Positions 10,701 to 37,770 of a stretch of DNA of 61,425 nt are shown one piece after another. Under the pieces are notes generated by a model, which saw only the letters and a program-made list of their open reading frames with translations, was not told the origin of the DNA and made no database searches. Source of the DNA: an uncultured bacterium (GTDB lineage: Bacteria > UBA8481); the NCBI GenBank assembly GCA_964499705.1, contig CAZCME010000005.1, positions 186,001-247,425 on the forward strand. Reading direction: 5' to 3'. The position numbers and the translations under genes were made by a program. How positions within the stretch are numbered: the first letter of the stretch is position 1; each line of letters starts with the position of its first letter.

Positions 10701-13700
10701 GTCTCGGGCAGAAACGACAATCCGCCCCCTGATCCGAACATGATGGGCGGCGACTTGCAGGGGCTTATGGATTCCATGACCTATTTCAATACCATGGGAT
10801 TCAACTGCATCTACATGAGCCCGGTCTGCGACTTCGGCGGAGGCGCCTGGGGATATAACCAGAGCGACCTCTACGCGGTGCAATATTCGTTCGCCGATCC
10901 GAGCGCCAGGTGGCGCCGCCTGCAATCGGTCGTAGAGCTTGCCAAGAAGGCCAGGAATCACAATATCAGGCTCGCCATGGACTGGGTGCCCGGCCAGATC
11001 TACCAGGGGCGCACCACGACGAATCACCCCGACATCATCAACGGGAAGCGATTTGGCGGCGAGCGCGTGCGGGAGGACTGGGCATCCGCGCGACAATTCT
11101 TCGTCGACCATTCGCTCACGTGGGCCGCGCTCGGCATCGTGGCGCTTCGCGCCGACAACACGAAGTTCTATCAGCCGGACGATATTCCCAACAATGGACT
11201 GCCGTTCTACCGCTACATGAGGAAGAAGTGGAACGAGGTCTACCCCCAGATCTACGTCTTCGGTGAACAACCTGGAGGCGCTTCCGATCTCGCCGCGTAC
11301 GTCAATGACGGAGCGCGCATGAATGGGCAGCTCGATTTCCCCATCCGTGAAAACATCAATGCATGGGTGAATGGCGGCACCACGGCCAACCTGATCTCTG
11401 GATTCACCGGCAACGAGGCCACCTATGGCGCGAAGGCGCTGATGGCGGGCTTCATCGAAAACCATGACCACAGCCGTACCTATCACAACATGGGTGGCGG
11501 CGGGGATAATGACGGCTTCAAGAGCGGCGGCGTGATGTCGAATATCCGCGCCGGCTATATGTTCTGCGCGCTGAACTCGCAGCCGCCGGTCTTCTTCTAC
11601 GGCGATGAAGTGCCGATCACGGGATGGAACAGCGGGACGTATCCATTTCCGCCGGCCCAGTTCAACGTAGGAACCGAGCTGCAGGGGCAGACGCGCGTCA
11701 TGCCTTGGAACTGGCCGGACGGCACGTGGTTGCGCGACGCCATCGCGGACTACTACACGGCGCGCTGCGTCTTCCCGGAGATGCGCGGATCGAACGCGAA
11801 CCGCAACCTGAGTCAGGCGCCGGTTGACGATCGGTTCATGCGCTATCGCCGTGGAACAGGCGATCAGCAGCGCGTGGTCGGCTATGTTAATAAGTCAGGT
11901 GGTTCCGTCGCCGGCATCACGATCGACCTCGAAAACGGATCCACATTCAGGGACTGGCTGTATCCGACCGACGCCGTCGTCGGAGCAACCCCCACCACTA
12001 GCATTTCGGACAAAGGGCGCCTCTGGATCCAGGCCGGCTTCGGGCGTTACGCGATCAACATTAATGCGGGCGAGCCTGGCGTCATCTGTTCCATCGACAA
12101 CAACACCGCATGGACCAGTATCACCGGCACCGATGGCAAGTGCTGGCTCACTCGCGTGATGACTGCGGAGTTCGGCGGTGCCGGCGTGGAGAACCGCACG
12201 CTCTACTGGTGGAAACCCGGCTACACCGTTCATTCGCGCGTCATACACCTTCCGACAGGCGGCGGCGATCTCGGAACCCTCGGCGGCGGCGAAACCACGG
12301 TTTCCTTCGTTACTCCCGATGTCAACGGACCGCCGATCCCCACGGGCCTTTCAGCGGTAACACGCGATCGAGCGATCTGGTTGAAATGGGAACCCGTGAC
12401 CGACTACACGTCAGAAGATCCTCAGAATCATGTGACGTATCGCGTCTATAGATCGCGCACCTCGAACGATGCCAACGCCGAATGGATCATTGAAACTCTC
12501 CAGCCCTGGTATTACGACAGCAACAACGACGATTTCCTCACGAACGGCGACACCTATTACTATCGCATCAGGGCCGTGGACCGGAACGGCAACCTCTCCG
12601 GCTGGTCGCCCGAGGCCGTGGCTGTCCCGAATCTCTGCACCGTGAAGTTCTACTTCACGACCGAGGGCGCATGGACTGGCACTCCGTCCTCGGTGAAGAT
12701 TGCCGGCAATCTTGCGGCTCTCGGCAACTGGGCTCCCATCACCATGACCATGCTCGACACGAGCCTCTGGTATTTCGAGTGTCAGATGGATCCCACCATC
12801 ATGCCGGAATACAAGTTCCTGATCAACGACGGCTGGGAGTGGGATAACATCTTCTACTCGAACGATGTCAGCTACGATCGTCACGGCCGGCCGCGCCTCA
12901 TCAAGATCGTGGACCATACCGGCAACCGCGTTGCGGTCTTCACGAACAAGTACAACGTCGATGGTGACGTCGCGCCGCGGAAGGTCAAGAACGCGGTGGC
13001 CACCGCCAATGACACGTTTATCTCGGTCGGTTGGACTCCGAATCTGGAAGCGGATGTCAACCGCTACATCATCCGACGCTCCCCGGATGGATCCACATGG
13101 ACCGAAATCGGGGACGCCGCCATTTCACAGAACACTTATACGGACACAGCGGTCACGCCGGGAACATGGTATTATCAGGTTCGCGCCGTCGACTGGTGGA
13201 ACCAGGGCGGCGACTGGTCCACGACCACCTCGGCCGCGCTCGTCTCATCTGACGTCACGCCTCCGTCACAGCCTCAAAGCCTGACGCTGGCTCCCGTGGA
13301 TACCGGCAGCATCTACATCACATGGGCCGCCAACTCCGAGGGGGATATGGCCGGATACTACCTCTTCCGCAGCAGCACAGACGCGACCGTCCCCATGACG
13401 CTGGCCAACCGTGTCAGCCCCTCGCTCATCGTCCCCTCTCTCTCTCCGACATTCACCGACACCGGAGTTACGTCCGGAGTTCAGTATTGGTATCGTCTGT
13501 CCGCCGTTGATTATTCGGGCAACATCTCCACTCCCTCCGACACGGTCGGCGCTTACATCGTCGCCCTGACCCTCTCGTGCGATCTGGCCAATATCTCCGG
13601 CAACATTGAATTAACGGGCAATGTTCGTTCATTCGGTCCTTCCCCCAATCTCGTGACCATGCCCGTTCTCAGCGGAACCGTTCGGCAGAAAACCTTCGGC

Positions 13701-14210
13701 GTCTTTGCCGGCCAGACTCTGCAGTATCGATATTCTTACGGCAACGGAGCCACGAGCGAGGGAGTCTTCAACACCGGATCCCAGAAGAGGGAATACGTGC
13801 CGGCTCAGATTCCGACCATTACGCTCAACCAGGACTGGGAGGATGCCCCCGCCGGAGTGCAGAATCCCGTGGGATTCGCCGGCCATCAATCGGCTTATCT
13901 GCAATGGACCAATGACTCGAGCGTGGACGTGGTGGGGTATTACGTCGAGCGCGCCAGTTCGACGGATACCGTCTATACGCGCATCACGCCCAATATCCTG
14001 ACCTCCGCCTACTACCTGGACTCAGGTCTCACCAATGGGGAAACCTATCACTACCTGGTCCGGTCCGTCGACGGCGGAAACATCCAGTTGCAGAGCCCGG
14101 TAACTCGCGCCATCCAGGTCACCCCCGTCGCGCCGATCTGGATCCGCTTCCGCGTGGATGCGGAACCCGTGGATCGACCCAGAATCGCGGCCCGGAGAAT
14201 CATCAGATGA
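4764..14210 (+). CDS. Giant (~3,150 aa) exported multidomain GH13 alpha-amylase/amylopullulanase-like protein with DOMON-like, FN3 and CBM20-like modules
   Basis: ATG 4764 gives a clean signal peptide (MRNFTAKLSLISLSAFTLALIFPSPASA). GH13 core at ~10670-11850 (YNVFIDRF, GGDLQG, LRADNTK, FGEQ, FIENHDH). Repeated YLTWD..LY-type DOMON-like modules; FN3 YYYRIRAVD motifs; CBM20-like VKIAGNLAALGNW...EYKF. Confidence 0.85.
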   Translation: MRNFTAKLSLISLSAFTLALIFPSPASALASIRVTGSFNGFSINDTAMSTGTGPDAGRWKLTAQIFYTSAASDTAWKFVAPVGSWATDHWGGNGAGADIAMPAFNTIFAANHNGGAGAESGKWTGAWDSNKWYTFRFADAGSASTNATVMQTDNAPISISTVTPATTPYAYIPARVNVTISGAKSQQEKVIVRYTVNGWITSDTVLCDSTAATAYYADIPGFAAGTKVIYYVLTSTAATSTDWDLQTLAYNTNGGSNYTYTVLPPNVTHHTVYPPTGVYGRYGGGSQFAGSERVRTTAGATAYLTWDTNNIYAAFTGGTGNTDSYIVMVDTNPGIASGALPTDTYAGRGYWGNTFRPDVAFTAASSVLRRQAANTAGTWQIPTDVTASCTSLFGYDSGAGAADSIVIGIPRSLVGLANPTDSAAFWIYAVSSPSTVWAIFDSTTDGKLYTTGTDSGMILFETSSIPSAPPSPIAPTDGQTTVASRRPTISWNVATPGDPADSIIDYYFEIATDSNFSDTTSFPLEVGWRGATNSITCTTTLAANTWYYWRVKAKETGGGVGSFSSSWSFKINTIIAVDGSLTDWNSTEKFPTLNANGFYLTWDSTYLYGAWDRGTTFETTDVVFMYIDTAAGGSSSAINWNGGGSHLLPFSADIEINYRQRNLSQDFDYQVWNGAGWTFKDTAGTEYKNGTTNVLEWSVPWSIIGPATTQFKVIMYVENEYNSNYMFSPAPATNPQGAAPQEFSAYLQFDRSTMNSSSNDRYYYRSSRTWQAEAPSPASFSPIVDGIKDAAWGNTPSATSSSYRLPAPGYGDTNPPMTVAAGGLCRDVYVTNDAQWLYIGWQATGDVFALDEPGQTAQSAHYGFAITDTSSYGSPQDPWKSGGTTFVSGYGADVWTNLFANFNVTTYSDCNRYTTLGAAWNVSAITVANQDYGGYLPSIAQGWGEIRIPLSNISPTLRIGDSIAIIHYSRHNGSKGGADDATPFISSGTSDWAVSNAHLQFRDTAVIVYAIKRGVIDASHIPDTTPVQGLRLMRYPETTTVGVPANLLLKAKPTGIVTSATVIYSTDSGGAWTSVALAEEVTSGEATYWSGFLPSFVKDSIVLYYFAINSSQMTTYLYGADTWSVPTASQATAIANPFRFSISNAAPTPPTSVDITPRVPTGNDTLVVTTSGGADSDAVDLLRYTFSWYRNGVFQFSSVDSYAPYTSEVSPALTSAGDTWSVLVTLSDGWDTTASVSGPIVRISTMAVWSGALPSEANRATQSTTGGITEWIWRDRTGEAFGATDAYDLREVRVQADTTYMYFLFRMGSYPLDGVHVAVAIDTTNGSPGGNEIGDQTSTLLDSGILSPPMRYERQFIVHAVTPGSLSVELDTAAGAGNNWISPPGGSVISADPVAGLVEVRLSRADLMLNGTCTPRFAFATFGNFLGAAATANTSGFTGYSNPSDVLDAVSRTKTGLNDTRHFTIGSTEDFDDADLDFAPQINLWDTSVAPNMPPGSTPLELPATGDTVYSNPPTLTWSTPADTDAGDTIIAYIVEFADSGTPLDGNVLYRVSIAASGLTLYSIPDFIPDSIYYTWRVRPVDRAGNIGEGAPQTFFLHDATSILVNSPTDLQNMNNMRRMNGDEVAGTTIRWNWVGATHSDSAPITAYVIQIDTSTSFTSPIDSRTLPNTARLYTWTSAQRGYTYYARILAYDTGTGIGTSPTSDGIYVSRREVNGDSSDWAPTGGYAFLSANLNASYAEGIWTDSNGDQRGDVANSTSRDIVQFQVTADPYNLYFLVPTTAFVDGATLGQIAISYENSSDVRAFQGNGTYSEDSFTTTKWAWENLVRWRTGNDDCFAMNTYYTATPARYTENTSSKYVELCVPFSAIGGSDNILGRQVAFTVASFYNNGGAVGTNGAGNSNVVDAVSSGLSTWPDEVNGSDPIVNYTLLTTFDTGGRVTAFSGGLETASYTPNLPTQNGDPVQSQLDLIMYNVFIDRFVSGRNDNPPPDPNMMGGDLQGLMDSMTYFNTMGFNCIYMSPVCDFGGGAWGYNQSDLYAVQYSFADPSARWRRLQSVVELAKKARNHNIRLAMDWVPGQIYQGRTTTNHPDIINGKRFGGERVREDWASARQFFVDHSLTWAALGIVALRADNTKFYQPDDIPNNGLPFYRYMRKKWNEVYPQIYVFGEQPGGASDLAAYVNDGARMNGQLDFPIRENINAWVNGGTTANLISGFTGNEATYGAKALMAGFIENHDHSRTYHNMGGGGDNDGFKSGGVMSNIRAGYMFCALNSQPPVFFYGDEVPITGWNSGTYPFPPAQFNVGTELQGQTRVMPWNWPDGTWLRDAIADYYTARCVFPEMRGSNANRNLSQAPVDDRFMRYRRGTGDQQRVVGYVNKSGGSVAGITIDLENGSTFRDWLYPTDAVVGATPTTSISDKGRLWIQAGFGRYAININAGEPGVICSIDNNTAWTSITGTDGKCWLTRVMTAEFGGAGVENRTLYWWKPGYTVHSRVIHLPTGGGDLGTLGGGETTVSFVTPDVNGPPIPTGLSAVTRDRAIWLKWEPVTDYTSEDPQNHVTYRVYRSRTSNDANAEWIIETLQPWYYDSNNDDFLTNGDTYYYRIRAVDRNGNLSGWSPEAVAVPNLCTVKFYFTTEGAWTGTPSSVKIAGNLAALGNWAPITMTMLDTSLWYFECQMDPTIMPEYKFLINDGWEWDNIFYSNDVSYDRHGRPRLIKIVDHTGNRVAVFTNKYNVDGDVAPRKVKNAVATANDTFISVGWTPNLEADVNRYIIRRSPDGSTWTEIGDAAISQNTYTDTAVTPGTWYYQVRAVDWWNQGGDWSTTTSAALVSSDVTPPSQPQSLTLAPVDTGSIYITWAANSEGDMAGYYLFRSSTDATVPMTLANRVSPSLIVPSLSPTFTDTGVTSGVQYWYRLSAVDYSGNISTPSDTVGAYIVALTLSCDLANISGNIELTGNVRSFGPSPNLVTMPVLSGTVRQKTFGVFAGQTLQYRYSYGNGATSEGVFNTGSQKREYVPAQIPTITLNQDWEDAPAGVQNPVGFAGHQSAYLQWTNDSSVDVVGYYVERASSTDTVYTRITPNILTSAYYLDSGLTNGETYHYLVRSVDGGNIQLQSPVTRAIQVTPVAPIWIRFRVDAEPVDRPRIAARRIIR

Positions 14211-15304
14211 TCCGTAAACCTCGAATCGCCATTCGCCACATCCGGAGCGCGATTCTCATCGTGTTTACTATCGCCGTCACCTGCCTCCCCGTTCTCGCCG
14301 AAACTCTCGTGGGCCGCGACAGCTGGGGCGTGGCCCCCAAATACATCGCCATCCAACCCGGTACGACCGTCTCGGTCTGGAGCACGGCGGACAGGGCGCA
14401 GATCACGGGCGGAGCCGTGGCGATGTCTCCTGTTGGGGATGGCACCTACGAATACATCGTCGGTCTCACCGCGGGACAATCCTACAACTACCTCTTCTAT
14501 ACCCGGCCCGGAGCCACAGCCATACAGGGGCTCCAGGCGGGAAACGAGTATTACGACATCGTTCCCACCATCGGGACCATCCGCTGTGGACGAAATGCTC
14601 CCCTGTATAATGACACTTCGGCCTATTATTCCTCCGTGAACTACGATGCGCGGCGCGTCCTGGCCGTCCCTTCCACCATGAATCCCGGAGAGACACTCTG
14701 GGTATTCAACAATTGGGGTGAAACTCCCGGAGTCATATCCGGTTTCACCGGCAATGGCGAAGGCGATACCAGCATTCGCCTCAACTGGACGGGCACCTAC
14801 GGCTTCTGGGGCACCGGCGGCGAGGCGTTCAAGTCGGCGGATGTCCTGGCCGGAGGTATGATCGAGATCTATCGATCCGCTTCACCGCTGACCGGCTACG
14901 CGCTTCGCGATACCGTCACGGGCGGTTCCACAACTTACCTCGATACGAATCTCGCGCCCGGAAGCTACTATTACATGGTGCGCGCGCTCGACGCCTATAA
15001 AGGTCTCGGATACGCAAGCGACTCCTACCGCACTTTGCGGGGCGGGTCCGACTCCCCCGTGGTCAATACCTACATTCAATGCACCACCGCCCTTTCGATC
15101 CGCAGTTTCTTCATCGTCCAGGGCGGTGACTGGGATTACATCAAGGATCATAACTACCGGGCGTGGTTTTCAGAGAGCACCGGCGATCCCTGGTGTGAAA
15201 AATTCCCGGCGACCATCGCCGTCGTCACTCTTCCGGATCGACGCAAAAACGGGACTGACGTTCCGACGAATCAGAACATCGCAAGTCTGAACCCGCAGCG
15301 TTAA
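14207..15304 (+). CDS. Exported protein with CBM-like N-terminal segment and FN3 domain, translationally coupled to the giant GH13
   Basis: ATGA overlap; signal peptide; MSPVGDGTYEYIVGLTAGQSYNYLF (CBM-like); IEIYRS...YLDTNL...YYYMVRALD (FN3). Confidence 0.7.
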   Translation: MIRKPRIAIRHIRSAILIVFTIAVTCLPVLAETLVGRDSWGVAPKYIAIQPGTTVSVWSTADRAQITGGAVAMSPVGDGTYEYIVGLTAGQSYNYLFYTRPGATAIQGLQAGNEYYDIVPTIGTIRCGRNAPLYNDTSAYYSSVNYDARRVLAVPSTMNPGETLWVFNNWGETPGVISGFTGNGEGDTSIRLNWTGTYGFWGTGGEAFKSADVLAGGMIEIYRSASPLTGYALRDTVTGGSTTYLDTNLAPGSYYYMVRALDAYKGLGYASDSYRTLRGGSDSPVVNTYIQCTTALSIRSFFIVQGGDWDYIKDHNYRAWFSESTGDPWCEKFPATIAVVTLPDRRKNGTDVPTNQNIASLNPQR

Positions 15305-16964: not shown

Positions 16965-17315
16965 TCACTCCATTTTCTTCACAGCGGACGACGCGGGGAT
17001 CTCAACGAGTATGCACCGCGACGTGGTGGACGGCATGGTCAGGATCCCGAAGGCTTCCGAGGATGTGATCCGCCGGCCATGAATGTCGGGCGACGTTATC
17101 GCATGAATGCTCAGCTTGCGGCCGGCCGTAGACTCCATTTCCGCTATCCGCACGCTTTCCGCGGGAACGGAATCAACAACACATATTGTCCGCGCCATCG
17201 CCAAGGCCATCTGAATCCTGTCCCACGTTCCGGCGGATGAATGCCTCGACCGAAATCGAAGCTTCTGCCGCGTCTTTTCGGCCTGGTAATCGGAAATGCG
17301 GCGGGCGATCGTCAT
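16965..17315 (-). CDS. Small hypothetical protein (116 aa)
   Basis: ATGA overlap with the upstream nucleotidyltransferase-like gene; fills the gap to msrP; no recognised motif. Confidence 0.55.
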   Translation of the reverse strand: MTIARRISDYQAEKTRQKLRFRSRHSSAGTWDRIQMALAMARTICVVDSVPAESVRIAEMESTAGRKLSIHAITSPDIHGRRITSSEAFGILTMPSTTSRCILVEIPASSAVKKME

Positions 17316-17992
17316 TCCAATTCAGCCAGAAAAGTCTTGAGCTCCGGAAGATCGCCTGGAAAATGAATGCGGTTCTGCTCGATCAGCAGTACGGCCTCGG
17401 CAAGCGTGATCCGTGCGTTGTACCGCCACTCCTCGCTCAATTTTTCGTAGATCGAGCGCGCTCCATTCAGCCGGGATGAAGCCAACGCAAGAACCAGAAC
17501 CTGCATATCTCGAAATCTCTTGATTCCCGTCCGTTCCGATACCATCTTTTCCACGGCAAAAGATTCCGAAGTCGCAACAGGCAGAACCAGGTCGTCCACG
17601 ATGATCCGCTCCGTCTGAATCAGGTTAAGTCCGCCGAAAATCACGTAGTTATCTCCAGAGTCCAGAACCGCATCCGGTTGTAAATCCTCCCGAATTCCAA
17701 GAAGATTGATTTCAAGATGCGTTTCCGGATCGCGAGGGGCCAGAATCGAAGGTTCGTCCCGCGATGCCTTCCATTGTGAGAGAGACCGGATGATGTCCGT
17801 ATCTCCTCGGCGAATGGCCGTATCGACATCCATGGTGACGAAGAGATCGCCCGGATCCCCTTTCGCCATGGCATGAATTCCCGGAACATTGGATCCGACA
17901 ATGACAATATCGTCGTTAAGAGCCGGCTGAAGGTCGCGAAGCGTATTCCTGAGTTTTTGAGCAAATGTTTCCCCGGAGCTCAGAACCGCCAC
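17312..17992 (-). CDS. Nucleotidyltransferase-fold protein (Pol-beta superfamily, AbiEii/GSU2403-like)
   Basis: IVIVGS...VTMDVD motif and a late EK....R...K..RD motif. Start is uncertain (GTG 17992, or CTG 17983 overlapping the upstream TGA). Confidence 0.6.
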   Translation of the reverse strand: MAVLSSGETFAQKLRNTLRDLQPALNDDIVIVGSNVPGIHAMAKGDPGDLFVTMDVDTAIRRGDTDIIRSLSQWKASRDEPSILAPRDPETHLEINLLGIREDLQPDAVLDSGDNYVIFGGLNLIQTERIIVDDLVLPVATSESFAVEKMVSERTGIKRFRDMQVLVLALASSRLNGARSIYEKLSEEWRYNARITLAEAVLLIEQNRIHFPGDLPELKTFLAELE

Positions 17993-20900
17993 TCCACCCG
18001 CGCGCCCGCGCCCACCGTGAAGTAATCGTTCTGCTTCTCCAGCAGGTCCTGCACCCATGCGCCGGTCGTCGACGCGGAGAGTTCCAGGTTCGTCGCTATC
18101 CTGTACCCGAGCGAGAGGTTCGTGCCGTACGTGTTCCGTTCCGACGTCGTCTTCTGTCCCTGCTCCGATTTCGCCAGGCTGGCGTTGGCGCCGCCGGAGA
18201 GCTGGATCCTGCGGTTGAGGTCGGCCACTTTTCCGATTCCCGGAAGCTGCAGCGATTCCGGCACCTTCAGGTCGAAGTAGGTCGTCCAGTTCATCGAAGG
18301 CGAGAGCGACTGGGACACGGTCTTCTGCTCCGGCGTGAACGTCGGTACATTCGTCGACCGGTTATAGCCGCAGGTGATCGTCATGTTGAAGGCGTCCGAC
18401 AACTGGAAGTTCCAGTTCAGGTTAGGAGCGATGCTGTTCGTCCGCGCCGCGGCGGCCTCGGTCCGGCCGTAGCTCACACCGCCCGTGATGTACGACGACT
18501 GGAACTTGATGAAGGACCGGGGAAACGCCTGGTTGTAGTCCATGCGCATGTTCAGGGATCCGTTAATGCCGTCCGTCAGGGAAAGCGTGGACTGCGATGC
18601 CACTTCGTTATGCGTGAAGCTCGTCGAATACGATGTCGAGAGCCAGTTCCAGGTCTTGATCTCTCCGCCCAGGTTATGCACGATGTTCGTCGATCCGCTC
18701 GACCGGTTCGCCGTGATCCCGTCCGTTCCCTGTCCGATCCTCTTGGAGCTTCCCCACGGGAAGATGCGCTCGCCGACATAGTCCCCGAAGACATCCGTGA
18801 TGCCCACCTTGGTGGAGAGCGGGCGCTCGGTCGTGCTCCGGTAGGACGCGTTCGACGAGAGCGAATACGAATATCGCGCCGTAAGCCAGGACAGAAGCCT
18901 CGTCCATCGGGACGGATCGACGCCCACGTTCAGGCGGAAATCTCCGCCGAGCGCCAGGTCCTTGTTGACCGTCAGGCCGAAGGTCGGGAGATTGAAATTC
19001 TCCGTGTAGTTTCCGGAGAAAGACACGCCCGGCGAAACTCCCCAGAACGACGGCAGTGAGAGCGCCGCGTTCGTCGTGTGGACGCGGTTCTGCACGCCCT
19101 TCCTCCGGTCGGAGGGAATGAGGCTCCGGTAATCGACGTACGCGGTCGAGAAATTATAGGAGAGCGTCAGGGGATCGAACGGCCGCGATGTCGCGGAGAA
19201 ATTCCCGCTTTGAGTGACCGATTTCGTGTTGGCGTCCTTCTCTCCGGACGCGACGGAATTATCGGACTTGCTGTGCGACTGCGAATAGTTGTAAGAGGAA
19301 TTCAACGAGAGAAATTGTCCCGTCGGGATGATGCCGAACAGCTTCCGGGGAAACGTGAAGGAATAGGCCGTGTTGCCGTTCAGGGTCGAGGAGAGATTCG
19401 TGCGGTCCTGGTTGCGGTAATCCGTGAGCGAGGTCGACCGGCCGTAGTTGAGGCTGATCGCGGGGAGCTTCCAGACCTGCAGCGTCGTGTTGTACGCCTG
19501 GTTCTCCGAGACGGTTTTTCCGAGGCTGGTGCTCAAGGCGTTCTCCACCCGATCCGGATCGATCTCCGTCACCGACTTGCTGTACGTCGCCGAAAGAGGG
19601 AGCACGATCTGCCAGGAGGAGGGCAGCAACCGATGCAGGGCTAGCGTGCCGGAGAGGCTCGTCGAATACTGCGACTGCTCCACGTGCGATGACGTCGCCG
19701 GGTCATTGAGAATACCCACGCCGCGATACTTGCCCGGCACGTCGCGCCAGGATCCTGATAGCGACCAGAGGTCTCCCCAGCCCGTCGCGAAATCCGCCTT
19801 CTGCGCCGTCGCGGACGCGTCGATCGGTTCCGCGGCGTAGATGTCGTCCAGCCAGAGCTCGCCGCCATCCGCGGCCGTGGAGTGCACCCTCAGCCAGATC
19901 TCGTTGATGTTCGTGAGGCTCGGCGCGCGGTTCTGGGAAAATTCTCCGACGATGATCGCCTCGTAATTGGTGTAGGAAATCACGACGGGCGAATCGACGC
20001 CGACGAGAATGGCCGTGATGGTCGATTGCCGGATCGGATCCAGGAGCACATCGATCCGCTCCCATACAGGCGCCGCCGCGCCGCCCAGCAGTCCGCCGAT
20101 GTCGCTGCCGGTCGTGACGCGTTTCCTGATCTCGATGTAATTCTTCGGATCCTGCACAAGAAAGAGCGAGAAGGTTTCGTTCCGGGCGTCGCCCGCCAGG
20201 AAATAGGAAAGCCTCCTGTAGTCGCCGAGATTCACTTTCCGGGCCGCGCCCACGGCGGAGTTGAAATTCTGGACGACCGTTGCGGAATCTCCGGCCGCCA
20301 GTTGCCATTTGACCGCAAGGGCCTGCTCCTTCGTCTTCGAGGCGTTCCCCTTGATCTCCGTCCGCGGAGGACTGGAATAATTCGGATCGTTCTCGTTGTT
20401 CCGGGGCAGAAGGACGACGCGTGAATCGGACGACGATCCCTTGAACTTATTGCCGCGAAAAGCCAGTTGGTCCATGAACAGGGTGACATTCGTGTCCTGG
20501 CCGTCCTGCCGGACGAAGACGAGCCGGATATGCTTGATGACCGAGGTGTCCGCGGAACCGAACGGCGTCCGGGTTCGCCAGGGTGCGCGGAAGACCGTCC
20601 AGGCGGAATTGTCCAGTCCCGCGAAATTCTTCCGCTCGATATCCGCCGCGAGATTCAATTCTCCCAACCTGAAGAACGCCTCGAGTTGATCGAGTTTGCC
20701 GTCGTTGTCCATGTCTTCCGTCGTCAGCGCGCCGTCGTTCACACCGTACCGGTACGGAGCCTGGACGGGATGATTGAAGACGATGCCGACATCCTCCCCG
20801 GTGTTCAATGTCCCGTTGTTTTCGCCCGCGTCGTTGGTCGCCGGATTTCCGTCCAGGCCGTTATCCTCGGTCTCGAAAACGCCGTCACCGTCGGCATCCT

Positions 20901-23900
20901 CCGATATGAGGCCCACATCGACATATGCCCGCATCGTCCCCGGCAGACCCGACGCATACAGCTCCATCGTCGTGATGTTCTGGAAACTGATCGCCGATGA
21001 TGAGAGCGGCTGCCGGATCGCGACCCATGTCTCGCCGGCGGCGAAGGAAAGATCGAGCTGAAGCGACTGCTGCCGCTCGTTGTTCGTGTTCTGTGCCTCG
21101 GTCCGGTGCCCGAAATTGTCCCGGATATTGAATCCGACAAGCCCCCGCGTGGCGTCGGTCGTGCCCGAGAGTTTCACCGCCGTGTCGCCCGGAGGCTTCG
21201 ATCCCGGCTGCCAGGAGGTCCGCGACATCCCGACACCCACGATCTCCTCGATCTCCTCGAAATCTTCCACCATCGCGGAGCCGAACGTATTCGGAGCGTG
21301 CGTCGTCCAGGCCCATTCGCCGCCGAGATCGAGCCGGAAATTCTGCTTGATCCTGTTCATGATCGCGCTCGACCCGTCCTTGTCCAGGAAGTCGTACAAG
21401 AGCGGTGCCAGCTGGAGCCGGGCGTCGATCTCCACGATCGTGTTCTGGTTCGGCGCGTCCTCCAGAATGCTCGGGATCTCCGTCGCCGCCGCGGAGACGT
21501 CGTACAGGAGCGTCGTGCCGAACGAGAGGCGCGGGTTGACGTTCACGTCGAGCCGCGTGCCCGCGACCGTACGTTCGAACTGCCCGCCAAACGGCAGGAA
21601 CTCGTAATCCACGCGGATCTTGGAATCGTTCTTGAGGATGGCCCGGTTCAGGAAGGTGATGATGCCGGCTTCGTAATCGATGAAGTAGTCGACATCGCGA
21701 GCCACTTTCACACCGTCGACATAGACGATGTCCGATCCCTTGATGATGTCGAAGCCGAGGGAGAAGATTTCGCTCGGCTGGTCGGAGAGATACGAGAGCT
21801 CATACGTGTATTTCTGGTCGGCGCTTGTGACGTCTTCCATCCTCTTCGTATAGATGGCGTTGTTGTCCGTGTCGGAATTGCCCGAGCGGGCGAAGGGCGC
21901 CGTCTCCGCGGGCTTTATGACACCGAAATCGTAATCGATGAGCTCCACGTCGACCTTGTCGTTCCCATCCCGGTCGAATCCGAACAGCTGCAGGTACGTG
22001 GTTGCGACGCCGTTCACCGTCGTCTGCGCCCGGCCGTCCCTGTCGAGGATCCGGAATATGAAGCCGGGATCGTCCTTCTTGATCCGGCGGCTCATCAGCC
22101 GGTAGCGGTTGCGGAGCTCATGCGCGCGCAGCAGGGGTTCCGCAGTGACGGAATCGCCGAGCCGGATGAGGCGCGGCGGCGTCGTCGAATTGCCGAAGGA
22201 ACCGCCTCCCGTCGCCAGGCTGTTATACGAAACCGCGATGGCGTCCTTCGTCGAGATCCCGGAGAGAAACTCGATTTCCGCGGTGACCTGGTTCACGATG
22301 AAGTCGGTTCCGGGAACGAGGACATTCCACTTGCCCGCATACGAAACGCCGGCCGCGGTTCCAGCGCTCTGCGCCGTGAACTCCACGGTGCCTCCGTCGT
22401 TCGTGGAGAGCTGGTCGTCCTTGTAGACGGTGATGGCCGAGATCGGCCAGAACCGCGAGTCTGGTTCGGCGGCAAAGTAGATATTCTTGGCGAAGTCGGC
22501 GTCCGTCAGGGGATTGGTCACCCGGTTCTGGAGGATGCGCTCGCCCGAGAGCGTGAATTCCTTCGACGCCGAAACGCCCTTGGTCTGCGATCCGAGGAGA
22601 ATGAGGTTCACGCGATCGGCCTTCAGGAAGCCGAGGTTCAGATCCGTCACCGAGAGATTCGCCTTCACGCCGAAGAGGCTCTTGTTGTAGAACGCGAATT
22701 CGCTGCCCGGGAGGCTCACCGAAATATCGCCGAACTCCGCGTCGTACTGATACGTCCCCCAGCTCGCCTTGTGCGGCACGCCGACGAAGTCGACGGAAAT
22801 GCTCCGGTTGTTCACGGAATTCACGCCACGCTGCGTGTCGTCGTACCGGATGTCGATCGTGATATGGTCCGTCGTTTCCTTGCCGACGCGGCCCGCCACC
22901 GTCACCTGCAGCTCCTGGTTCAGGTTGAAGCTCGACTGCGTGTTTCCGCCCACGCGCGTCGCGGACGGGTTGGTGTAATGCGTCACGTTGTAACTGACAT
23001 CCACCACCTTCCGGCCCTGGATGCGGAGCGTCGACGGGAGCGGGCCGCCGATCTCGAGATCGAAGAAGCCGCGCGACTTCTGCTCCTCCTCCGCTTCGGG
23101 AAGATCCGGCGGAGCGAGCGCGATGGCGTCGCCGGTGATGGAGGGAGGAAGCGGTTCGAGCTGCGCAGCGGCATCGAGCGTCCGGAGGATCTGCTCTTCC
23201 GAGCGCGGTTCCTCGCCAAGGGATTTCGAGATCTGCGCGGAGATTTCCGCTTCGCGCTTCGCATAGGAATTCCGGACGAATTCCTCCAGCTCGATCGCCT
23301 TCTCCAGTGCTTCCCGCGTCTTGGCAACCGCTTCCAGGGCCTGTTCCAGCTCGCCGGCGGCCAGGCGCGTCAGGGCCGTCTTTCTCCACGTCTCCGCTCC
23401 CTGCCGCCATGTCAGCGAATTCCGCTCCGCTTCCCGCTCGTCCTTCATCATCAGCCACGAAGGCGGCATCGTCTTTCGCGGCGGCAGCTCGGGGATCTCC
23501 ATCTGTTGCGCGGGCTCCGCGACCGGAGCAGGCTCGGTAACAGGCGGGACTTCCACCGTCTCGACAACGGGCTGGTCCATGACGGGCTCGGCGACAACCG
23601 CCTCTCCCGCTTCTTCCTCCACGATCTCCATGCCCGACTCTTCGCTCTGCGGATACGTTCTTCTCAGGAACCACGCCGTATCCAGGTCGGCCCTGATCTC
23701 CCTGATCCGCGCGCGCACTTCCTCCGCCTTGATCCGCGCCACCTGCGCCTTCGCGGGCTCGCCCGACTTGTCCCACGTCCGCGCCGTCTCCTCCCAGGAA
23801 ATCGCCACATCCGCCCAGCGATCGACGAGTTCCGTCTGGAGCTCGATGGAGACGGGTCTGTCGATGAGCGTGCTCCGCCGCGCGGAAAGCTGCGCCGATA

Positions 23901-24432
23901 ATTCATCCAGCCTCGGCTCCAGTTCCGCGACTTTCATGAGCGCCGCGCCCGATCGCTGCATCGCGAGCTGCTGCGCGGGCGAATCGCCTGCCAGGCCGTA
24001 CGTCTTCGCCGCCTCGCGCCATGCCACTGCGGTTCTCCTCCAGGAAGCCAGTTCCGCCGTCAGCGACTGGACAACCTGCTCCAGCTCGTTCAATCGCGCC
24101 GTCGGAAGCACCGCCGCCGTGGCGCGCGCCTTCCCGTCGCGTTCCCATGCGATCGCAGCTTGCGCCCAGGCCTGTCGCGCCGCGACCGTATCGCCCAGTT
24201 CCCTGAAGCGGCGCGCGGTCTCTTCCCATGACCGCGCCGTATCGGCCCAGGATGGAACGATCGCGGGGGAAGGGGTCGTCGATGCCGGTCGAGCCGCCAC
24301 AGGCGGGGGCGGCGGAGAACTTTCGGAGGATGTCGCGGGAGATTCGGAAGAAGGCGACTGAGCGGCGACGGGAAGCAGGATCGCCAGCGCGATCACGAAG
24401 AGCGCCGCGGAAATCCGTCTCAGATTAAGCAC
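17980..24432 (-). CDS. SprA-like very large outer-membrane beta-barrel (T9SS translocon homolog) with helical N-terminal extension
   Basis: AAGGAG RBS, GTG start and signal peptide. SprA-like motifs: FGDISVSLPGSEF...KSLFGVKA, GSDIVYVDGVKVARDVDYFIDYEAG, IRVDYE, VEDFE, DVGLISED, TEDMDNDG. Long beta-strand-rich C-terminal half ending VEWRF. Confidence 0.75.
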   Translation of the reverse strand: MLNLRRISAALFVIALAILLPVAAQSPSSESPATSSESSPPPPPVAARPASTTPSPAIVPSWADTARSWEETARRFRELGDTVAARQAWAQAAIAWERDGKARATAAVLPTARLNELEQVVQSLTAELASWRRTAVAWREAAKTYGLAGDSPAQQLAMQRSGAALMKVAELEPRLDELSAQLSARRSTLIDRPVSIELQTELVDRWADVAISWEETARTWDKSGEPAKAQVARIKAEEVRARIREIRADLDTAWFLRRTYPQSEESGMEIVEEEAGEAVVAEPVMDQPVVETVEVPPVTEPAPVAEPAQQMEIPELPPRKTMPPSWLMMKDEREAERNSLTWRQGAETWRKTALTRLAAGELEQALEAVAKTREALEKAIELEEFVRNSYAKREAEISAQISKSLGEEPRSEEQILRTLDAAAQLEPLPPSITGDAIALAPPDLPEAEEEQKSRGFFDLEIGGPLPSTLRIQGRKVVDVSYNVTHYTNPSATRVGGNTQSSFNLNQELQVTVAGRVGKETTDHITIDIRYDDTQRGVNSVNNRSISVDFVGVPHKASWGTYQYDAEFGDISVSLPGSEFAFYNKSLFGVKANLSVTDLNLGFLKADRVNLILLGSQTKGVSASKEFTLSGERILQNRVTNPLTDADFAKNIYFAAEPDSRFWPISAITVYKDDQLSTNDGGTVEFTAQSAGTAAGVSYAGKWNVLVPGTDFIVNQVTAEIEFLSGISTKDAIAVSYNSLATGGGSFGNSTTPPRLIRLGDSVTAEPLLRAHELRNRYRLMSRRIKKDDPGFIFRILDRDGRAQTTVNGVATTYLQLFGFDRDGNDKVDVELIDYDFGVIKPAETAPFARSGNSDTDNNAIYTKRMEDVTSADQKYTYELSYLSDQPSEIFSLGFDIIKGSDIVYVDGVKVARDVDYFIDYEAGIITFLNRAILKNDSKIRVDYEFLPFGGQFERTVAGTRLDVNVNPRLSFGTTLLYDVSAAATEIPSILEDAPNQNTIVEIDARLQLAPLLYDFLDKDGSSAIMNRIKQNFRLDLGGEWAWTTHAPNTFGSAMVEDFEEIEEIVGVGMSRTSWQPGSKPPGDTAVKLSGTTDATRGLVGFNIRDNFGHRTEAQNTNNERQQSLQLDLSFAAGETWVAIRQPLSSSAISFQNITTMELYASGLPGTMRAYVDVGLISEDADGDGVFETEDNGLDGNPATNDAGENNGTLNTGEDVGIVFNHPVQAPYRYGVNDGALTTEDMDNDGKLDQLEAFFRLGELNLAADIERKNFAGLDNSAWTVFRAPWRTRTPFGSADTSVIKHIRLVFVRQDGQDTNVTLFMDQLAFRGNKFKGSSSDSRVVLLPRNNENDPNYSSPPRTEIKGNASKTKEQALAVKWQLAAGDSATVVQNFNSAVGAARKVNLGDYRRLSYFLAGDARNETFSLFLVQDPKNYIEIRKRVTTGSDIGGLLGGAAAPVWERIDVLLDPIRQSTITAILVGVDSPVVISYTNYEAIIVGEFSQNRAPSLTNINEIWLRVHSTAADGGELWLDDIYAAEPIDASATAQKADFATGWGDLWSLSGSWRDVPGKYRGVGILNDPATSSHVEQSQYSTSLSGTLALHRLLPSSWQIVLPLSATYSKSVTEIDPDRVENALSTSLGKTVSENQAYNTTLQVWKLPAISLNYGRSTSLTDYRNQDRTNLSSTLNGNTAYSFTFPRKLFGIIPTGQFLSLNSSYNYSQSHSKSDNSVASGEKDANTKSVTQSGNFSATSRPFDPLTLSYNFSTAYVDYRSLIPSDRRKGVQNRVHTTNAALSLPSFWGVSPGVSFSGNYTENFNLPTFGLTVNKDLALGGDFRLNVGVDPSRWTRLLSWLTARYSYSLSSNASYRSTTERPLSTKVGITDVFGDYVGERIFPWGSSKRIGQGTDGITANRSSGSTNIVHNLGGEIKTWNWLSTSYSTSFTHNEVASQSTLSLTDGINGSLNMRMDYNQAFPRSFIKFQSSYITGGVSYGRTEAAAARTNSIAPNLNWNFQLSDAFNMTITCGYNRSTNVPTFTPEQKTVSQSLSPSMNWTTYFDLKVPESLQLPGIGKVADLNRRIQLSGGANASLAKSEQGQKTTSERNTYGTNLSLGYRIATNLELSASTTGAWVQDLLEKQNDYFTVGAGARVEWRF

Positions 24433-24539
24433 GAGTGTTCTCTCCTTGGCGCGTTCGGTTCCTTGTTCGCGACAACGCGGATTTCTTCATCCTTCATACT
24501 TCATTTTTTTCTGGCCTTTGCCGTGCTACGATTCCCATG

Positions 24540-25607
24540 ATGAAAATCATCGACCGGTATCTTCTGAAAATCCTGCTGCATGGATTTTCAGCGGCGCTGG
24601 GTATCGTCGCAGGACTCTTGATCCTGCAAAGACTCTATAAAATCATAGAACTGGCCATCACGAGATCGCTCGACGGCTTTCAGACCGTAAGCCTCATCCT
24701 CTGGACGCTGCCTCTGGTCTTCTTCTATTCTCTTCCGCTTGCCTCGATCGTCGGCACGCTGCTGACTTTCGGACGACTCTCGGGAGACTCCGAACTCCAC
24801 GCCGCGATGGCGGCGGGAATCAGCCGGAAACGACTCGCTCTCTACCCGACCGTATTCGCCGCGATTATAGCCATTCTGGCGCTCCTGAACAATATGGTAC
24901 TGATGCCTCTCGGATACGTCCGTTTCGACTCCATCGGCTTCGGCGTCGGCATCGATCCCATGCAGGCGCTCCGCCCCGGCATTGTCGAGCGCATCGCCGG
25001 ACGGCATGTTCTCGTCGGCGCCATCGATCCGGACAACAAGACCTTCCGTCAGCTCCTGACGGTCATTCCCTCCGAGGACGTCGGCCGGAAAGAAGGAGGC
25101 AGCCGTCTCGTCTGCCTCGCCCGCGAAGGTTCCTGGGAAATCGAAGGCGGCAGCATCAAGCTCTTCCTCGGCGCGGGCAGCATCCGGGAGCTGAACGACA
25201 CGGGCGGCCCCTGGCATGTCATGAAGTTCAGCGAATACTCGCTCCACCTGCCCCTCCCCCGCGACCGGTCCACCCATCCGAAACGCCTTACCGCGATGCA
25301 GCTCCTGACGCAACCGAAGCGCGAGCATGACATCGAATTCGCACGGCGCGCGCTCGAGGCAATTGCAATTCCGCTCCTCGTTCTCTGCGCCATTCCGCTC
25401 GCCATTCCGAGCGGCGCTTCTGCGGCTCGAAGCGGCGGGACACGCGGAGCCATCTTCGTGACGCTCCTGCTGTATTTTCTCTACTGGATCTTCAACTTCG
25501 GATCCGATTCCATCGTGGCGAAGTATTCGCTCTCTCCCCTGGCGCTCGCGATCCCTCATGTCCTTCTCGCCGTGCTCGCGGCCTCTCTCTGGAAACGGCG
25601 CCTGTGA
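24540..25607 (+). CDS. lptF: LptF/LptG family LPS export permease (LptF position)
   Basis: MKIIDRYLLK; GRLSGDSELHAAMAAGIS; 3 TM + periplasmic domain + 3 TM. Start at 24537 or 24540. Confidence 0.8.
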   Translation: MKIIDRYLLKILLHGFSAALGIVAGLLILQRLYKIIELAITRSLDGFQTVSLILWTLPLVFFYSLPLASIVGTLLTFGRLSGDSELHAAMAAGISRKRLALYPTVFAAIIAILALLNNMVLMPLGYVRFDSIGFGVGIDPMQALRPGIVERIAGRHVLVGAIDPDNKTFRQLLTVIPSEDVGRKEGGSRLVCLAREGSWEIEGGSIKLFLGAGSIRELNDTGGPWHVMKFSEYSLHLPLPRDRSTHPKRLTAMQLLTQPKREHDIEFARRALEAIAIPLLVLCAIPLAIPSGASAARSGGTRGAIFVTLLLYFLYWIFNFGSDSIVAKYSLSPLALAIPHVLLAVLAASLWKRRL

Positions 25608-26758
25608 AGACGCTCGATCGTTTCTTTCTCTTCCGGTTCGCCGCGTCCTTCTTCGTCTTCTTCCTCCTCTTCACATCCCTCTTCATTCTCGCCGAGCTCT
25701 TCGACCTGAAGGACAAGATCTCCCTCGGCGGCGATTCGTTTCCCCTTCTCATGTTCTATCTCGCGCTCCGTCTTCCCTTCCTCGCCTACGCGTCCGCCCC
25801 GATCTCCGTCATCCTCGCGACCATCTTCGTCTTTGCCTCGCGCGCGCATCTCTCGGAGGTCGTCGCGGTCCAGGCCGGAGGTATTTCCATCATCCGCCTG
25901 GCCGCTTCGATCCTCGCCGCCGCTTCCTGCCTGACGATACTTCTGCTCCTGGGAACGGAATTCAAAATCCCCCAATGGTCGGACAGGGCGGATTACATGC
26001 GCCGCGTCAATATTCAGAAGAAGCTTCCGCCGAAGACGGAATTCCGCGACCTCGTCTTTCAGGCCCGTGTCGCGAGCAAAGGCACGGTGGCAAGCGGCGC
26101 GGAGACGGCGAGCGCCTGTTTCATCATGACGGATCTTTTCGTGCCGCAGGAGCGGACCATGAAGAATGTGACGATCCTCTGGCCGGATGCGGAACAGACG
26201 GAGTTGTCGGAAGTCGAGTTCCACCGCGAGCTCCATTACACGCCCGGAGAAGGATGGAAAGCGCCGGGCGCGAAAGGTCGCGTCTATAGAAACCTGCCAG
26301 TGCCGAAGGTGATCGAGCTGATCGCGGCGTCGGGAGGAGTCAAGCTTCTCTCCGATAAACCGCTCGAAGCGGTCAGCATCTCGACCATGGCGAGGGAAAT
26401 CGCGGACCTGAAAAGCCTGGACGAAAATCGCACGTTCGAGAAACTGGACGATGAAATCTTCGAGCGTTACGTTCGCATCAGCGCGAAGCTCGCCTTTCCC
26501 TGTTCCGTCCCGTTCCTGGCGCTTCTGGGCGCGGGACTCGGAGCGCGCGTCGGGCGAAGAAGAGGGATCGGCGCCGCGATCGGCAACGCGCTTCTCTGCA
26601 CGCTCGGTTACATGATCCTCGTGCAGACGGCCCTGAGATTAAGCGAGCTCGCCGCTCATTCGCCCGCGCTGAGAACGGGCGCGATCTTCATCCCCTGGAT
26701 CGTTCCCGCGATTATTGGATCTCTATCGGGATATTACCTGAGGCTCCAGCGCTCCTGA
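25604..26758 (+). CDS. lptG: LptF/LptG family LPS export permease (LptG position)
   Basis: MKTLDRF; SEVVAVQAGGIS; KLAFP; GTGA overlap with lptF. Confidence 0.8.
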   Translation: MKTLDRFFLFRFAASFFVFFLLFTSLFILAELFDLKDKISLGGDSFPLLMFYLALRLPFLAYASAPISVILATIFVFASRAHLSEVVAVQAGGISIIRLAASILAAASCLTILLLLGTEFKIPQWSDRADYMRRVNIQKKLPPKTEFRDLVFQARVASKGTVASGAETASACFIMTDLFVPQERTMKNVTILWPDAEQTELSEVEFHRELHYTPGEGWKAPGAKGRVYRNLPVPKVIELIAASGGVKLLSDKPLEAVSISTMAREIADLKSLDENRTFEKLDDEIFERYVRISAKLAFPCSVPFLALLGAGLGARVGRRRGIGAAIGNALLCTLGYMILVQTALRLSELAAHSPALRTGAIFIPWIVPAIIGSLSGYYLRLQRS

Positions 26759-31078: not shown

Positions 31079-31945
31079 CTATTGCAGAAGTGAAAGAACG
31101 ATCTGCGGTCCCACATTGGCCTGCGACAGGGCGGAAATTCCCGTCTGTTGCAGGATCTGGTTCCGGGTGAACTCCGTGATTTCATGCGCGAAATCCGCGT
31201 CACGAATCCGCGATTCGGCCGCCGTGATGTTTTCAGTGCTCACTCCGACAAAGGAGATGACGTTTTCCAGCCTGTTCTGCAGAGCTCCAAGGTCGCCGCG
31301 CTGTTTCGAGACGAGGTCGACGGCCGTTTGAATCAGGTTGATGGCCGACTCCGCCGACAGTCGCGTCACGACTCCTCCCGAGGTGATGGTCGTCGTCGTG
31401 GCCGTTACCAGGCCCTTGATGCCGAGTCCGGTCGATGATATCGATGAAATATTGGCGACCAGCTTGTCGCCTTTGTTCGCGCCGACCTGGAACGTAAGCG
31501 AGCCTTTTCCGGCGGCGAACGTGCCGGTCAGGAGCACGCGTCCGTTGAAGCTCGTTGCCGAGGCCTGGCGGTCAATTTCCGCGATCAGCTGGTTCACTTC
31601 CACTTGTATGACACGGCGGTCGGCCGTGGAATAGGCGTCGTTCGATGATTGCACCGCGAGACTGCGGAGCCTCTGGAGAATGTCCGAGATCTGCGACAGT
31701 CCTCCTTCGGCGACCTGGATCATCGATACGCCGTCCTGCGAATTGCGCTTGGCCTGGTTGAGCCCGTTCACCTGGGTCCGCATGCGTTCTGAAATCGCGA
31801 ATCCGGCCGCGTCGTCAGACGCCCGGTTGATTCTCAATCCCGAAGAAAGTTTTTCGATGTTTTTTCCGAGCCGTCCCGTCGTGTCGTTTAGAAGACGCGA
31901 GGCGAACAGCGCGGGTATGTTGTTTCTGACTCGTAATCCTGACAT
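31079..31945 (-). CDS. fliC: Flagellin (288 aa)
   Basis: LSSGLRINRASDDAAG, QRLRSLAVQS, LGALQNRLE, ESRIRDADFA. Confidence 0.97.
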   Translation of the reverse strand: MSGLRVRNNIPALFASRLLNDTTGRLGKNIEKLSSGLRINRASDDAAGFAISERMRTQVNGLNQAKRNSQDGVSMIQVAEGGLSQISDILQRLRSLAVQSSNDAYSTADRRVIQVEVNQLIAEIDRQASATSFNGRVLLTGTFAAGKGSLTFQVGANKGDKLVANISSISSTGLGIKGLVTATTTTITSGGVVTRLSAESAINLIQTAVDLVSKQRGDLGALQNRLENVISFVGVSTENITAAESRIRDADFAHEITEFTRNQILQQTGISALSQANVGPQIVLSLLQ

Positions 31946-32045
31946 TTCACCCTCCTTGGTGAGTTATCAAGTAAGTATCAGTCCTCCGTCGCGCCTTCCT
32001 GCGGATCCTTCCATCGGAAAAACGCGACCCCTTGCCAATCCCTTG

Positions 32046-32082
32046 AAAAAAGCCGGACCGTCCCGCCCGGAGGCGGGACGGT
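32046..32082 (-). terminator. Intrinsic terminator after flagellin 2
   Basis: accgtcccgcc-N4-ggcgggacggt stem followed on the minus strand by TTTTTT. Confidence 0.75.
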
Positions 32083-32091
32083 ACCGGAGCC

Positions 32092-32958: not shown

Positions 32959-33021
32959 ATTTTCACCCTCCTTGGTGAGTGGAAAAGGTATTATCCATCA
33001 ACGCGGATCGCTCAACGTCCC

Positions 33022-33037
33022 GCGACATCCCTGTCAC
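33022..33037 (-). promoter_or_regulatory. CsrA-binding hairpin in flagellin 2 leader
   Basis: Minus strand GUGACAGGGAUGUCGC matches the ACARGGAUGU consensus; the RBS also sits in a CACC-AAGGAG-GGUG loop. Confidence 0.8.
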
Positions 33038-33119
33038 GTTGGTTGTTATTTCGCCATCAATCCGCGAAGCGACTCGGGAGCCACCCGATCGCTCGTCCTG
33101 TTACATTGCCCTGTCTGAC

Positions 33120-33485: not shown

Positions 33486-33685
33486 AATGGTTCACCTCCT
33501 TTCTCTGAATTACAAAGCTCACAGGCCGCACGAATCATGTATCTCGCGGACTGGCAAGGGAGGATAGAGCCCCGGTTGGAACCGGGGCGGGAAGGGTTTC
33601 TTAGGCGCTTCCTACCTCCATGTAGCCTTCGCCTTGTAGCAGTCTCCTCCGGTTCCGTCCGGAGTGCAGACGACCGCTATATCCT

Positions 33686-33712
33686 TTATCGGTTGAGGGA
33701 ATGGCAAACTTA
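33686..33712 (-). promoter_or_regulatory. Sigma28 (FliA) promoter for flaG-flagellin
   Basis: Minus strand TAAG-N15-ACCGATAA versus consensus TAAA-N15-GCCGATAA. Confidence 0.75.
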
Positions 33713-35396: not shown

Positions 35397-35400
35397 ATTC

Positions 35401-36828: not shown

Positions 36829-36848
36829 CCTTCCGAGTATGATACCGT

Positions 36849-37748: not shown

Positions 37749-37770
37749 ATGGGTTCCTCCTTGATAAATC

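Follow-up and report, generated by a model that had tools for sequence, protein, structure and literature searches.

The 61,425-nucleotide stretch of DNA analyzed here (the window; positions 186,001 to 247,425 of contig CAZCME010000005.1, assembly GCA_964499705.1), which comes from an uncultured bacterium, encodes a 2,150-residue protein that is almost certainly a true, strongly diverged homolog of SprA/Sov, the outer membrane translocon found in type IX secretion systems (T9SS). It would be a giant beta-barrel with cap domains, ~550 residues shorter over the homologous part than the SprA of Flavobacterium johnsoniae. In our preferred interpretation, which we consider probable, the protein is the outer membrane translocon of a T9SS-like route that is reduced, may lack a motor, and makes use of private carriers. 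The finding is limited chiefly by the fact that the absence of the motor is unvalidated.

A Giant Barrel Protein with SprA Homology

As the original prediction had proposed, one giant 2,150-residue frame runs from 24432 to 17980; it is a single intact open reading frame (ORF) with a GTG start on the minus strand (17980..24432, from the ORF list and its translation). The range initially given, 17980-23050, takes in only the SprA-like part of the protein (approximately residues 461-2150); another 1.4 kb of the gene lies beyond it, up to 24432. It is the only SprA-like ORF in the 4.67-Mb genome under study (G000, completeness 96%), and all three matches of that genome to the model TIGR04189 lie inside the gene. 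Read from the sequence, the protein carries both the Sec signal peptide and the C-terminal aromatic beta-signal of an outer membrane protein. The Sec-type signal peptide (24361..24432, minus strand, approximately residues 1-24) has a basic N-terminus and a hydrophobic core and forms a helix at residues 2-19 in an AlphaFold2 model; its cleavage was placed by eye between VAA and QS. The terminal beta-signal that had been proposed is evident in the last residues of the protein (...ARVEWRF), the final phenylalanine, F2150, being nearly invariant across 29 aligned homologs.

The SprA-homologous region (17983..23034, minus strand, residues 467-2150) comprises the barrel strands and cap domains and reaches to the ...EWRF end. 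The earlier claim that SprA-like motifs follow one another in the expected order is in agreement with the TIGR04189 matches, which fall into three collinear stretches (E 4.1e-46, 156.9 bits, below the cut-off), all on the minus strand: the best covers protein residues 707-1086 (21175..22314, profile 377-795), the second lies at 22621-23034 (profile 97-220) and the third at 19477-19956 (profile 1392-1548). A search of 5.8 billion protein sequences produced 32 matches to the SprA-like protein. The full-length homologs among them had 54-75% identity, those with names being from metagenome-assembled genomes (MAGs) labeled Hydrogenedentota or Lindowbacteria; the next tier, at 22-30% identity, was labeled Elusimicrobiota or Coatesbacteria, and proteins bearing SprA_N and canonical SprA (E ~1e-10) were also found. 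Over all of the alignments, full-length homologs from other MAGs span 51-75% identity. Two profiles were built, A1 from 29 homologs and A2 from the 11 closest, which represent the subfamily only. Profile A1 matched the F. johnsoniae SprA (6H3I chain A) over SprA residues 125-2369 with an E-value of 1.8e-143, and the narrower A2 matched the same chain with an E-value of 1.8e-16.

The protein was modeled with AlphaFold2 as two fragments, residues 951-2150 (predicted local distance difference test score, pLDDT, 78.9) and residues 1-950 (pLDDT 78.4), structure prediction being one of the checks that had been proposed; SprA chains headed the fold matches of both. For the C-terminal model the top four Foldseek matches were SprA chains (E 1.4e-46 to 1.3e-36), the next match being at 7e-7, and for the N-terminal model the top four were again SprA chains (E 9e-14 to 1e-6). 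VIA-align superposed the model of residues 951-2150 onto SprA residues 752-2399 with Z-scores of 16.4-18.9 and a root-mean-square deviation of 13-14 Å over 1,021-1,068 residues. Approximately 38 long strands are predicted in the two fragments (eight in residues 467-627, four in 954-1046 and 26 in 1522-2148), a number that would be compatible with the one giant 36-stranded barrel, capped and laterally open, that was reported for SprA in 2018. Together the TIGR04189 matches, profiles A1 and A2, Foldseek and VIA-align bear out the proposal of an SprA-type protein outside Bacteroidota.

Two segments of the protein, residues 682-746 and 897-945 (~21598-22389), also had weak matches to phage tail tube and distal tail models (NF052337, E 0.0054; TIGR02217, E 3.2e-5). 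The same matches were seen in the SprA-like proteins of two more distant relatives (L046 and L047), and they probably reflect a shared beta-sandwich cap domain.

Sorting Domains and Carriers Elsewhere in the Genome

The original prediction noted that the window holds no por or gld gene and no T9SS C-terminal domain (CTD). This is correct, as hidden Markov models (HMMs) for the CTD and for PorV built specifically from this genome had no match in the window, nor, with the threshold relaxed to E≤10, anywhere else on its 247-kb contig. The accompanying suggestion of different targeting signals did not survive the examination of the complete genome. We identified 34 ORFs with ordinary type-A CTDs and 24 matches to the PorV/PorQ family, all outside the window, and we therefore consider the targeting signals of this bacterium to be ordinary.

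The type-A CTD model TIGR04183 had 25 matches in the genome, 20 of them over its cut-off, at the ends of ORFs. The genome-specific CTD HMM, which was built from 24 of the sequences matched by TIGR04183, identified 34 ORFs whose CTD is exactly C-terminal and finishes with a motif resembling K-x-x-[IV]-[IV]-R; shared C-terminal motifs were among the things that the original prediction proposed to look for. The tail of the large amylase encoded in the window holds no shared terminal signal. The 34 ORFs range from 311 to 11,530 residues in length and sum to 121,007 residues, or 7.8% of the genome bases. A crude ORF caller yields 52 ORFs genome-wide that are 1,500 residues or longer, the longest having 11,530 residues (e.g., C22:44568-79160, C1:40779-69761, and C8:31174-59637).

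The PorV/PorQ family model NF033709 had 24 matches in the genome, of which 22 exceeded its cut-off, and all six carriers that were scanned as proteins scored 171-197 bits relative to a cut-off of 90. The PorV equivalog model, NF033710, was not reached (a maximum of 71 bits in the genome search and 76-92 bits in the six carriers, for a cut-off of 250). The arrangement of the genes links the two sets: directly downstream of 20 of the 34 cargo genes, and on the same strand, lies a PorV-like gene, whose start codon in many cases overlaps the stop codon of the cargo gene. Nine of the 12 carrier tails that were inspected consist of a recurring periplasmic domain that follows the barrel; in several of them a Pro-rich stretch comes before this domain. 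In four carriers the tail is of the TPR type (C9:88399-90201, C28:10547-12190, C15:42355-43938, and C7:58075-59625), and in five it is a ~110-residue domain of no known family (C1:69758-71215, C1:5117-6616, C26:14893-16239, C26:37835-39274, and C2:474120-475433). To our knowledge canonical PorV has no such periplasmic tail.

Based on this co-occurrence and on gene order, we infer that the pore very probably serves the 34 proteins with type-A CTDs, many of which would be giant surface enzymes or adhesins exported by Sec, and that each CTD would be passed to a PorV/PorQ-family barrel, in most cases a private one, that probably anchors the cargo in the outer membrane.

Distribution in Related and Unrelated Lineages

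The closest named relatives of the host are Candidatus Hydrogenedentes/Hydrogenedentota MAGs, and its GTDB-based phylum holds only five species. The supposition that the host lies outside the Bacteroidota is right, but in the NCBI taxonomy Candidatus Hydrogenedentota is placed within the FCB group. All five genomes of the phylum have an SprA-like gene together with 14-24 PorV-family matches and 8-20 CTD matches. Among more distant relatives the three components are found side by side. In L047 a gene for an SprA-like protein (275.5 bits, over the TIGR04189 cut-off) is followed on the same strand by one for a CTD protein and then by a PorV-like gene; in L046 the SprA-like gene (263.5 bits, likewise over the cut-off) is followed by one for a CTD protein, and in L044 a PorV-like gene lies 1.4 kb downstream of the SprA-like gene.

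To place these observations in a wider context, we used a sample of 101 genomes made up of G000, its four phylum-mates and 96 other families, mostly with one genome per family. SprA was matched at E≤1e-10 in 39 of the 101 genomes, 22 of which were over the TIGR04189 cut-off, and SprA-type ORFs of ~1,350-2,360 residues occurred in 34 of the 96 other families. The best SprA scorer (G011) is from a phylum that holds one genome. The PorV family was present in 38 of the 39 SprA-positive genomes and in 10 of the 62 SprA-negative genomes, as judged from lists compared by hand. In none of the 101 genomes was GldL or the Pfam family GldM_1st (PF12081) over its cut-off, and since this includes the SprA-positive genomes, SprA with no motor detectable by these models may be common outside Bacteroidia.

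Searches for the Motor, Ring, and Sortase

In all five phylum genomes the models for GldL (TIGR03513), GldM (TIGR03517), and GldN, for which we had no positive control, stayed without a match at E≤0.1, and GldL was likewise not found in five further genomes that bear an SprA-like gene (G005-G009). The GldK model had generic matches of 34-50 bits, relative to a cut-off of 350, in three of the five phylum genomes (G000, G003, and G004) and none in the other two or in G005; matches below the cut-off were also obtained in the Bacillus subtilis, Caulobacter, and Methanosarcina controls. The sortase model for PorU, NF033707, matched only at positions 932-1094 of its 1095 positions, which correspond to the CTD of PorU itself, and these matches were on cargo ends, the best scoring 33 bits for a cut-off of 420. 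In addition, the PorP/SprF model (TIGR03519) had a single 21-bit match in the genome, and no type-B CTD was found there. Beside the sprA-like genes of L046 and L047 lie genes for a peptidase of family M17, a protein with RHS repeats, and an SNF transporter, none of which is a motor candidate.

The genome in which the original prediction envisaged a divergent or minimal SprA route consequently yielded no complete canonical T9SS, as motor, ring, and sortase were not detected; the idea of a reduced route is favored by the absence of GldL, GldM, and GldN matches in five of five genomes, by GldK matches that are only below the cut-off, and by PorU matches through the CTD alone. As a T9SS is lacking in every control genome, the searches for motor, ring, and sortase are of unvalidated sensitivity, and divergent analogs may exist. 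With negative HMM searches that had no positive control as its basis, we regard it as an even call that the route would need neither a motor (GldLM/PorLM) nor a ring (GldKN/PorKN) nor the sortase PorU, with a CTD that would be neither cleaved nor linked to lipopolysaccharide (LPS).

The strongest competing explanation is that the protein serves as translocon in a T9SS that is complete in essence and whose PorL/M, PorK/N, and PorU are present, having diverged too far to be recognized by HMMs trained on Bacteroidota. We consider this unlikely, while acknowledging that all of the recognizable parts are strongly diverged (156.9 vs. 200 bits for SprA, and 71 vs. 250 bits for the PorV-like proteins with the equivalog model), that the small motor proteins would be the first to be lost to such searches, that the Gld models had no positive control, and that in F. 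johnsoniae, as stated in PMC10994853, the motor is essential. It is countered by the lack of even a single GldL, GldM, or GldN match at E≤0.1 in the five phylum genomes, and by the broader sample, in which GldL and GldM_1st reached their cut-offs in none of 101 genomes although 22 of these have an SprA over its cut-off. In addition, no catalytic part of PorU was matched, and no conserved unknown genes lie beside the sprA-like, cargo, or carrier genes of L046 and L047.

A Proposed Export Route and Its Alternatives

We therefore return to the interpretation that we favor, a reduced T9SS-like route with private carriers, for which the following sequence of events can be envisaged. The cargo would pass the inner membrane by Sec, after which its CTD would enter the SprA-like pore and, in the manner seen in the F. 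johnsoniae structures, bind to loops of a PorV-type barrel situated where the pore opens laterally. Carrier and cargo would then exit the pore together into the outer membrane, where the cargo would stay attached to the carrier and so be anchored. That the cargo probably remains on its carrier is suggested by the carriers being private and by no sortase being detectable. Release of the carrier and its cargo could be unpowered, or else be driven by folding of the cargo or by an unrecognized energizer.

Several observations weigh against this interpretation, the first group of which concerns the protein itself. The TIGR04189 score of 156.9 bits is under the curated cut-off of 200, and the whole protein has no Pfam family match at E≤1, SprA_N (PF14349) included, so that of the HMM checks that had been proposed the one for SprA gave a match and the one for SprA_N gave none. 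A single-sequence phmmer search of the PDB returned no SprA, only chance fn3 matches. Both AlphaFold2 models are open fragments (TM 0.2-0.4), and from such open sheets barrel closure, the number of strands in the wall, and the lateral opening are not readable. The second group concerns the route. Next to 14 of the 34 cargo genes there is no carrier gene, and the CTDs of L046 and L047 were detected by the genome-specific HMM only and not by TIGR04183 at E≤0.01. None of the genomes searched had a match that reached the cut-off of a Gld model, and a T9SS is lacking in all 14 controls. Lastly, the motor is described as required for the release of carrier and substrate from the F. johnsoniae translocon (PMC10994853), which means that a motor-less system would need another driving force.

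It is highly improbable, in our view, that the SprA-based route uses signals other than the CTD, with the large exported proteins encoded near the gene as its substrates. The original prediction had pointed to such neighbors, and two are indeed nearby: an amylase of 3,172 residues (4692-14210, plus strand) lies 3.8 kb away and an S8 protease (822-3095, plus strand) ~15 kb away. Neither has any CTD, homologs of the amylase are found near the sprA-like gene in two close relatives (L039 and L041), and the C-terminal 120 residues of the S8 protease recur C-terminally in three other proteins, all of which would suit such a route. Yet the 34 CTD cargoes and 24 PorV-family matches need a translocon and the genome has only one SprA-like gene, whose counterparts in distant relatives line up with genes for CTD and PorV-like proteins much as in an operon. 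The tail of the amylase, moreover, is not a shared terminal signal, its last 120 residues being an fn3-type repeat that is common to the internal repeats of other giant proteins.

The least probable alternative, a housekeeping envelope barrel tied by its pairing with lptF/lptG to LPS export and not to protein secretion, can draw on a divergent lptG homolog being kept upstream in L038-L041 and on the canonical T9SS attaching type-A cargo to LPS, but L046 and L047 have lost the pairing and instead have genes for CTD and PorV-like proteins after the sprA-like gene, and both homology and fold are specifically those of SprA, LptD chains scoring far lower in Foldseek (E ~1e-4 vs. 1e-46).

A Helical Region Fused to the Pore

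The residues that precede the SprA-homologous region, most of which fall outside the range first given for the gene, form two helical domains separated by a linker. The first, a helical repeat domain (residues 62-258; 23659..24249, minus strand) that is TPR-like and presumed to be periplasmic, is made up of long helices in the AlphaFold2 model (pLDDT ~96). It is followed by a Pro-rich linker (residues 259-329; 23446..23658, minus strand), predicted to be disordered from a pLDDT of <50 and from its sequence, and by a second helical domain (residues 330-423; 23164..23445, minus strand) with helices at residues 330-358, 362-405, and 412-423 (pLDDT ~95). A second disordered Pro-rich linker separates this domain from the barrel strands, the first of which is at residue 467.

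The similarity of this region to TPR proteins is slight. Foldseek found it to be weakly like consensus TPR proteins (E ~2e-3), and profile A2 matched a designed consensus TPR protein (CTPR) with an E-value of 0.0023; scores from the ESM Atlas with the N-terminal domain were at most 0.79, an uninformative level. Its W/E/R/A motifs are kept in at least 90% of the 11 subfamily members, and a relative with 30% identity aligns from residue 459 onward only. No stand-alone shorter homolog of the domain was found among 8,000 candidates. We read these data as indicating a TPR-like region of ~400 residues that is fused to the N-terminus of the pore in the close subfamily only and would be new in this clade, its periplasmic placement being presumed. 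It is tempting to speculate that the domain is periplasmic and stands in for a partner of the translocon such as the TPR lipoprotein SprE/PorW.

Comparison with Characterized Systems

The resemblance to SprA of F. johnsoniae (6H3I, 6H3J, 8GL6, and 8GL8) and Sov of Porphyromonas gingivalis amounts to collinear homology over nearly the entire SprA chain, and extends to the signal peptide, the terminal beta-signal, the single copy, and the PorV family and type-A CTD cargo that accompany the translocon. The differences are nevertheless considerable. Identity in the structural alignment is ~12-16%, the homologous part has ~1,690 residues here and ~2,245 in SprA, and the additional TPR-like ~400 residues at the N-terminus are confined to the close subfamily. 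In contrast to the hosts of SprA, this host is flagellated and labeled Hydrogenedentota, and GldKLMN and PorU were not detected in it.

There is also a likeness to the type-B CTDs and PorP/SprF shuttles of F. johnsoniae, such as SprB-SprF, for which PMC12618676 describes a gene for a giant surface cargo followed by the gene for its own carrier barrel; in both cases the carrier probably fixes the final location of the cargo. Unlike those pairs, the cargoes described here have type-A tails (TIGR04183) and their carriers are of the PorV/PorQ family (NF033709), many with a periplasmic tail. In F. johnsoniae, according to the same source, all type-A CTDs use a single PorV.

In published accounts the T9SS is largely a property of one group. 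The TXSScan survey, as reported in PMC4793230, detected it in 60 genomes out of 97 from Bacteroidetes and found no other clade to have it, and it is described as confined to Bacteroidetes/Bacteroidota in PMC10994853 among others, while some reviews ascribe it to the "FCB superphylum" (as worded in PMC11205867). Our full-text literature searches, which did not extend to supplements, found no paper that joins the T9SS with Hydrogenedentes or Hydrogenedentota, and among the matches listed there was no motor-less form of the T9SS and no mention of Elusimicrobia.

The current model, as set out in PMC10994853, is that the motor-driven release of carrier and substrate from SprA is the energy-requiring step. 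A lineage that has the pore, carriers, and dozens of CTD cargoes but no detectable motor, ring, or sortase would make two questions testable: can the core work alone, and did it arise before or after the motor? We tentatively propose, while holding it to be somewhat doubtful, that the outer membrane core (SprA pore, PorV-type carrier, and CTD tag) is an autonomous export machine that needs neither the GldLM motor, the KN ring, nor PorU, that it moves megadalton cargoes to private tailed carriers with a TPR-like dock on the pore in place of SprE/PorW, and that the motorized system of Bacteroidota is a later elaboration. The favored route would explain how an uncultured, flagellated, polymer-degrading bacterium could display giant enzymes whose genes take up 7.8% of its genome. 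Its practical value is limited, as the organism is uncultured.

Genes Surrounding the sprA-like Gene

The divergent arrangement with lptF and lptG that had been noted is correct: the two genes (24435-26758, plus strand) are back to back with the sprA-like gene. The called start codons of lptF and the sprA-like gene are only 2 bases apart and the Pfam match of lptF begins at residue 41, and for this reason the true start of lptF probably lies further downstream than called. A homolog of lptG is found upstream of the sprA-like gene, on the opposite strand, in all four close relatives with enough flanking sequence (L038-L041), directly adjoining it in L038 and with one or two short ORFs between in L039-L041; an lptF homolog was matched in L040 only. 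The pairing is absent from the more distant relatives L046 and L047, and as it is restricted to close relatives we treat it as lineage synteny.

Two small ORFs near these genes were considered as components of the route and rejected. A 365-residue ORF (14207-15304, plus strand) with a signal-peptide-like start overlaps the stop of the amylase gene by 4 bases, an overlap like that of a carrier gene, but its product is not PorV-like and belongs to no family. A 248-residue ORF downstream of the sprA-like gene (17312-18058, minus strand) has no family and no paralog and is not kept beside the gene in relatives. As for the S8 protease, three other ORFs (C7:52-2067, E 3.3e-15; C6:130061-131959; C6:188901-190799) share its last ~120 residues, at their C-terminus or close to it, and this tail may be a further domain for C-terminal sorting or anchoring.

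The flagellar operon of the original prediction is confirmed for flgK, flgL, fliW, and csrA; the match to flgN was weak (E 6.4e-5, below the cut-off) and the putative yvyF is a zinc-ribbon ORF. Besides these genes the window carries four flagellin genes, paralogs of 288-317 residues situated within 9 kb of one another (31079-39939), two of which (31079-31945 and 32092-32958) have identical Flagellin_N scores. Toward the end of the window are ORFs unrelated to any of the above, which encode a TPR-CHAT protein (52701-55412, plus strand), a UvrA-like double ABC ATPase (55417-57729, minus strand), and a member of the erythromycin-esterase family (57807-59171, plus strand).

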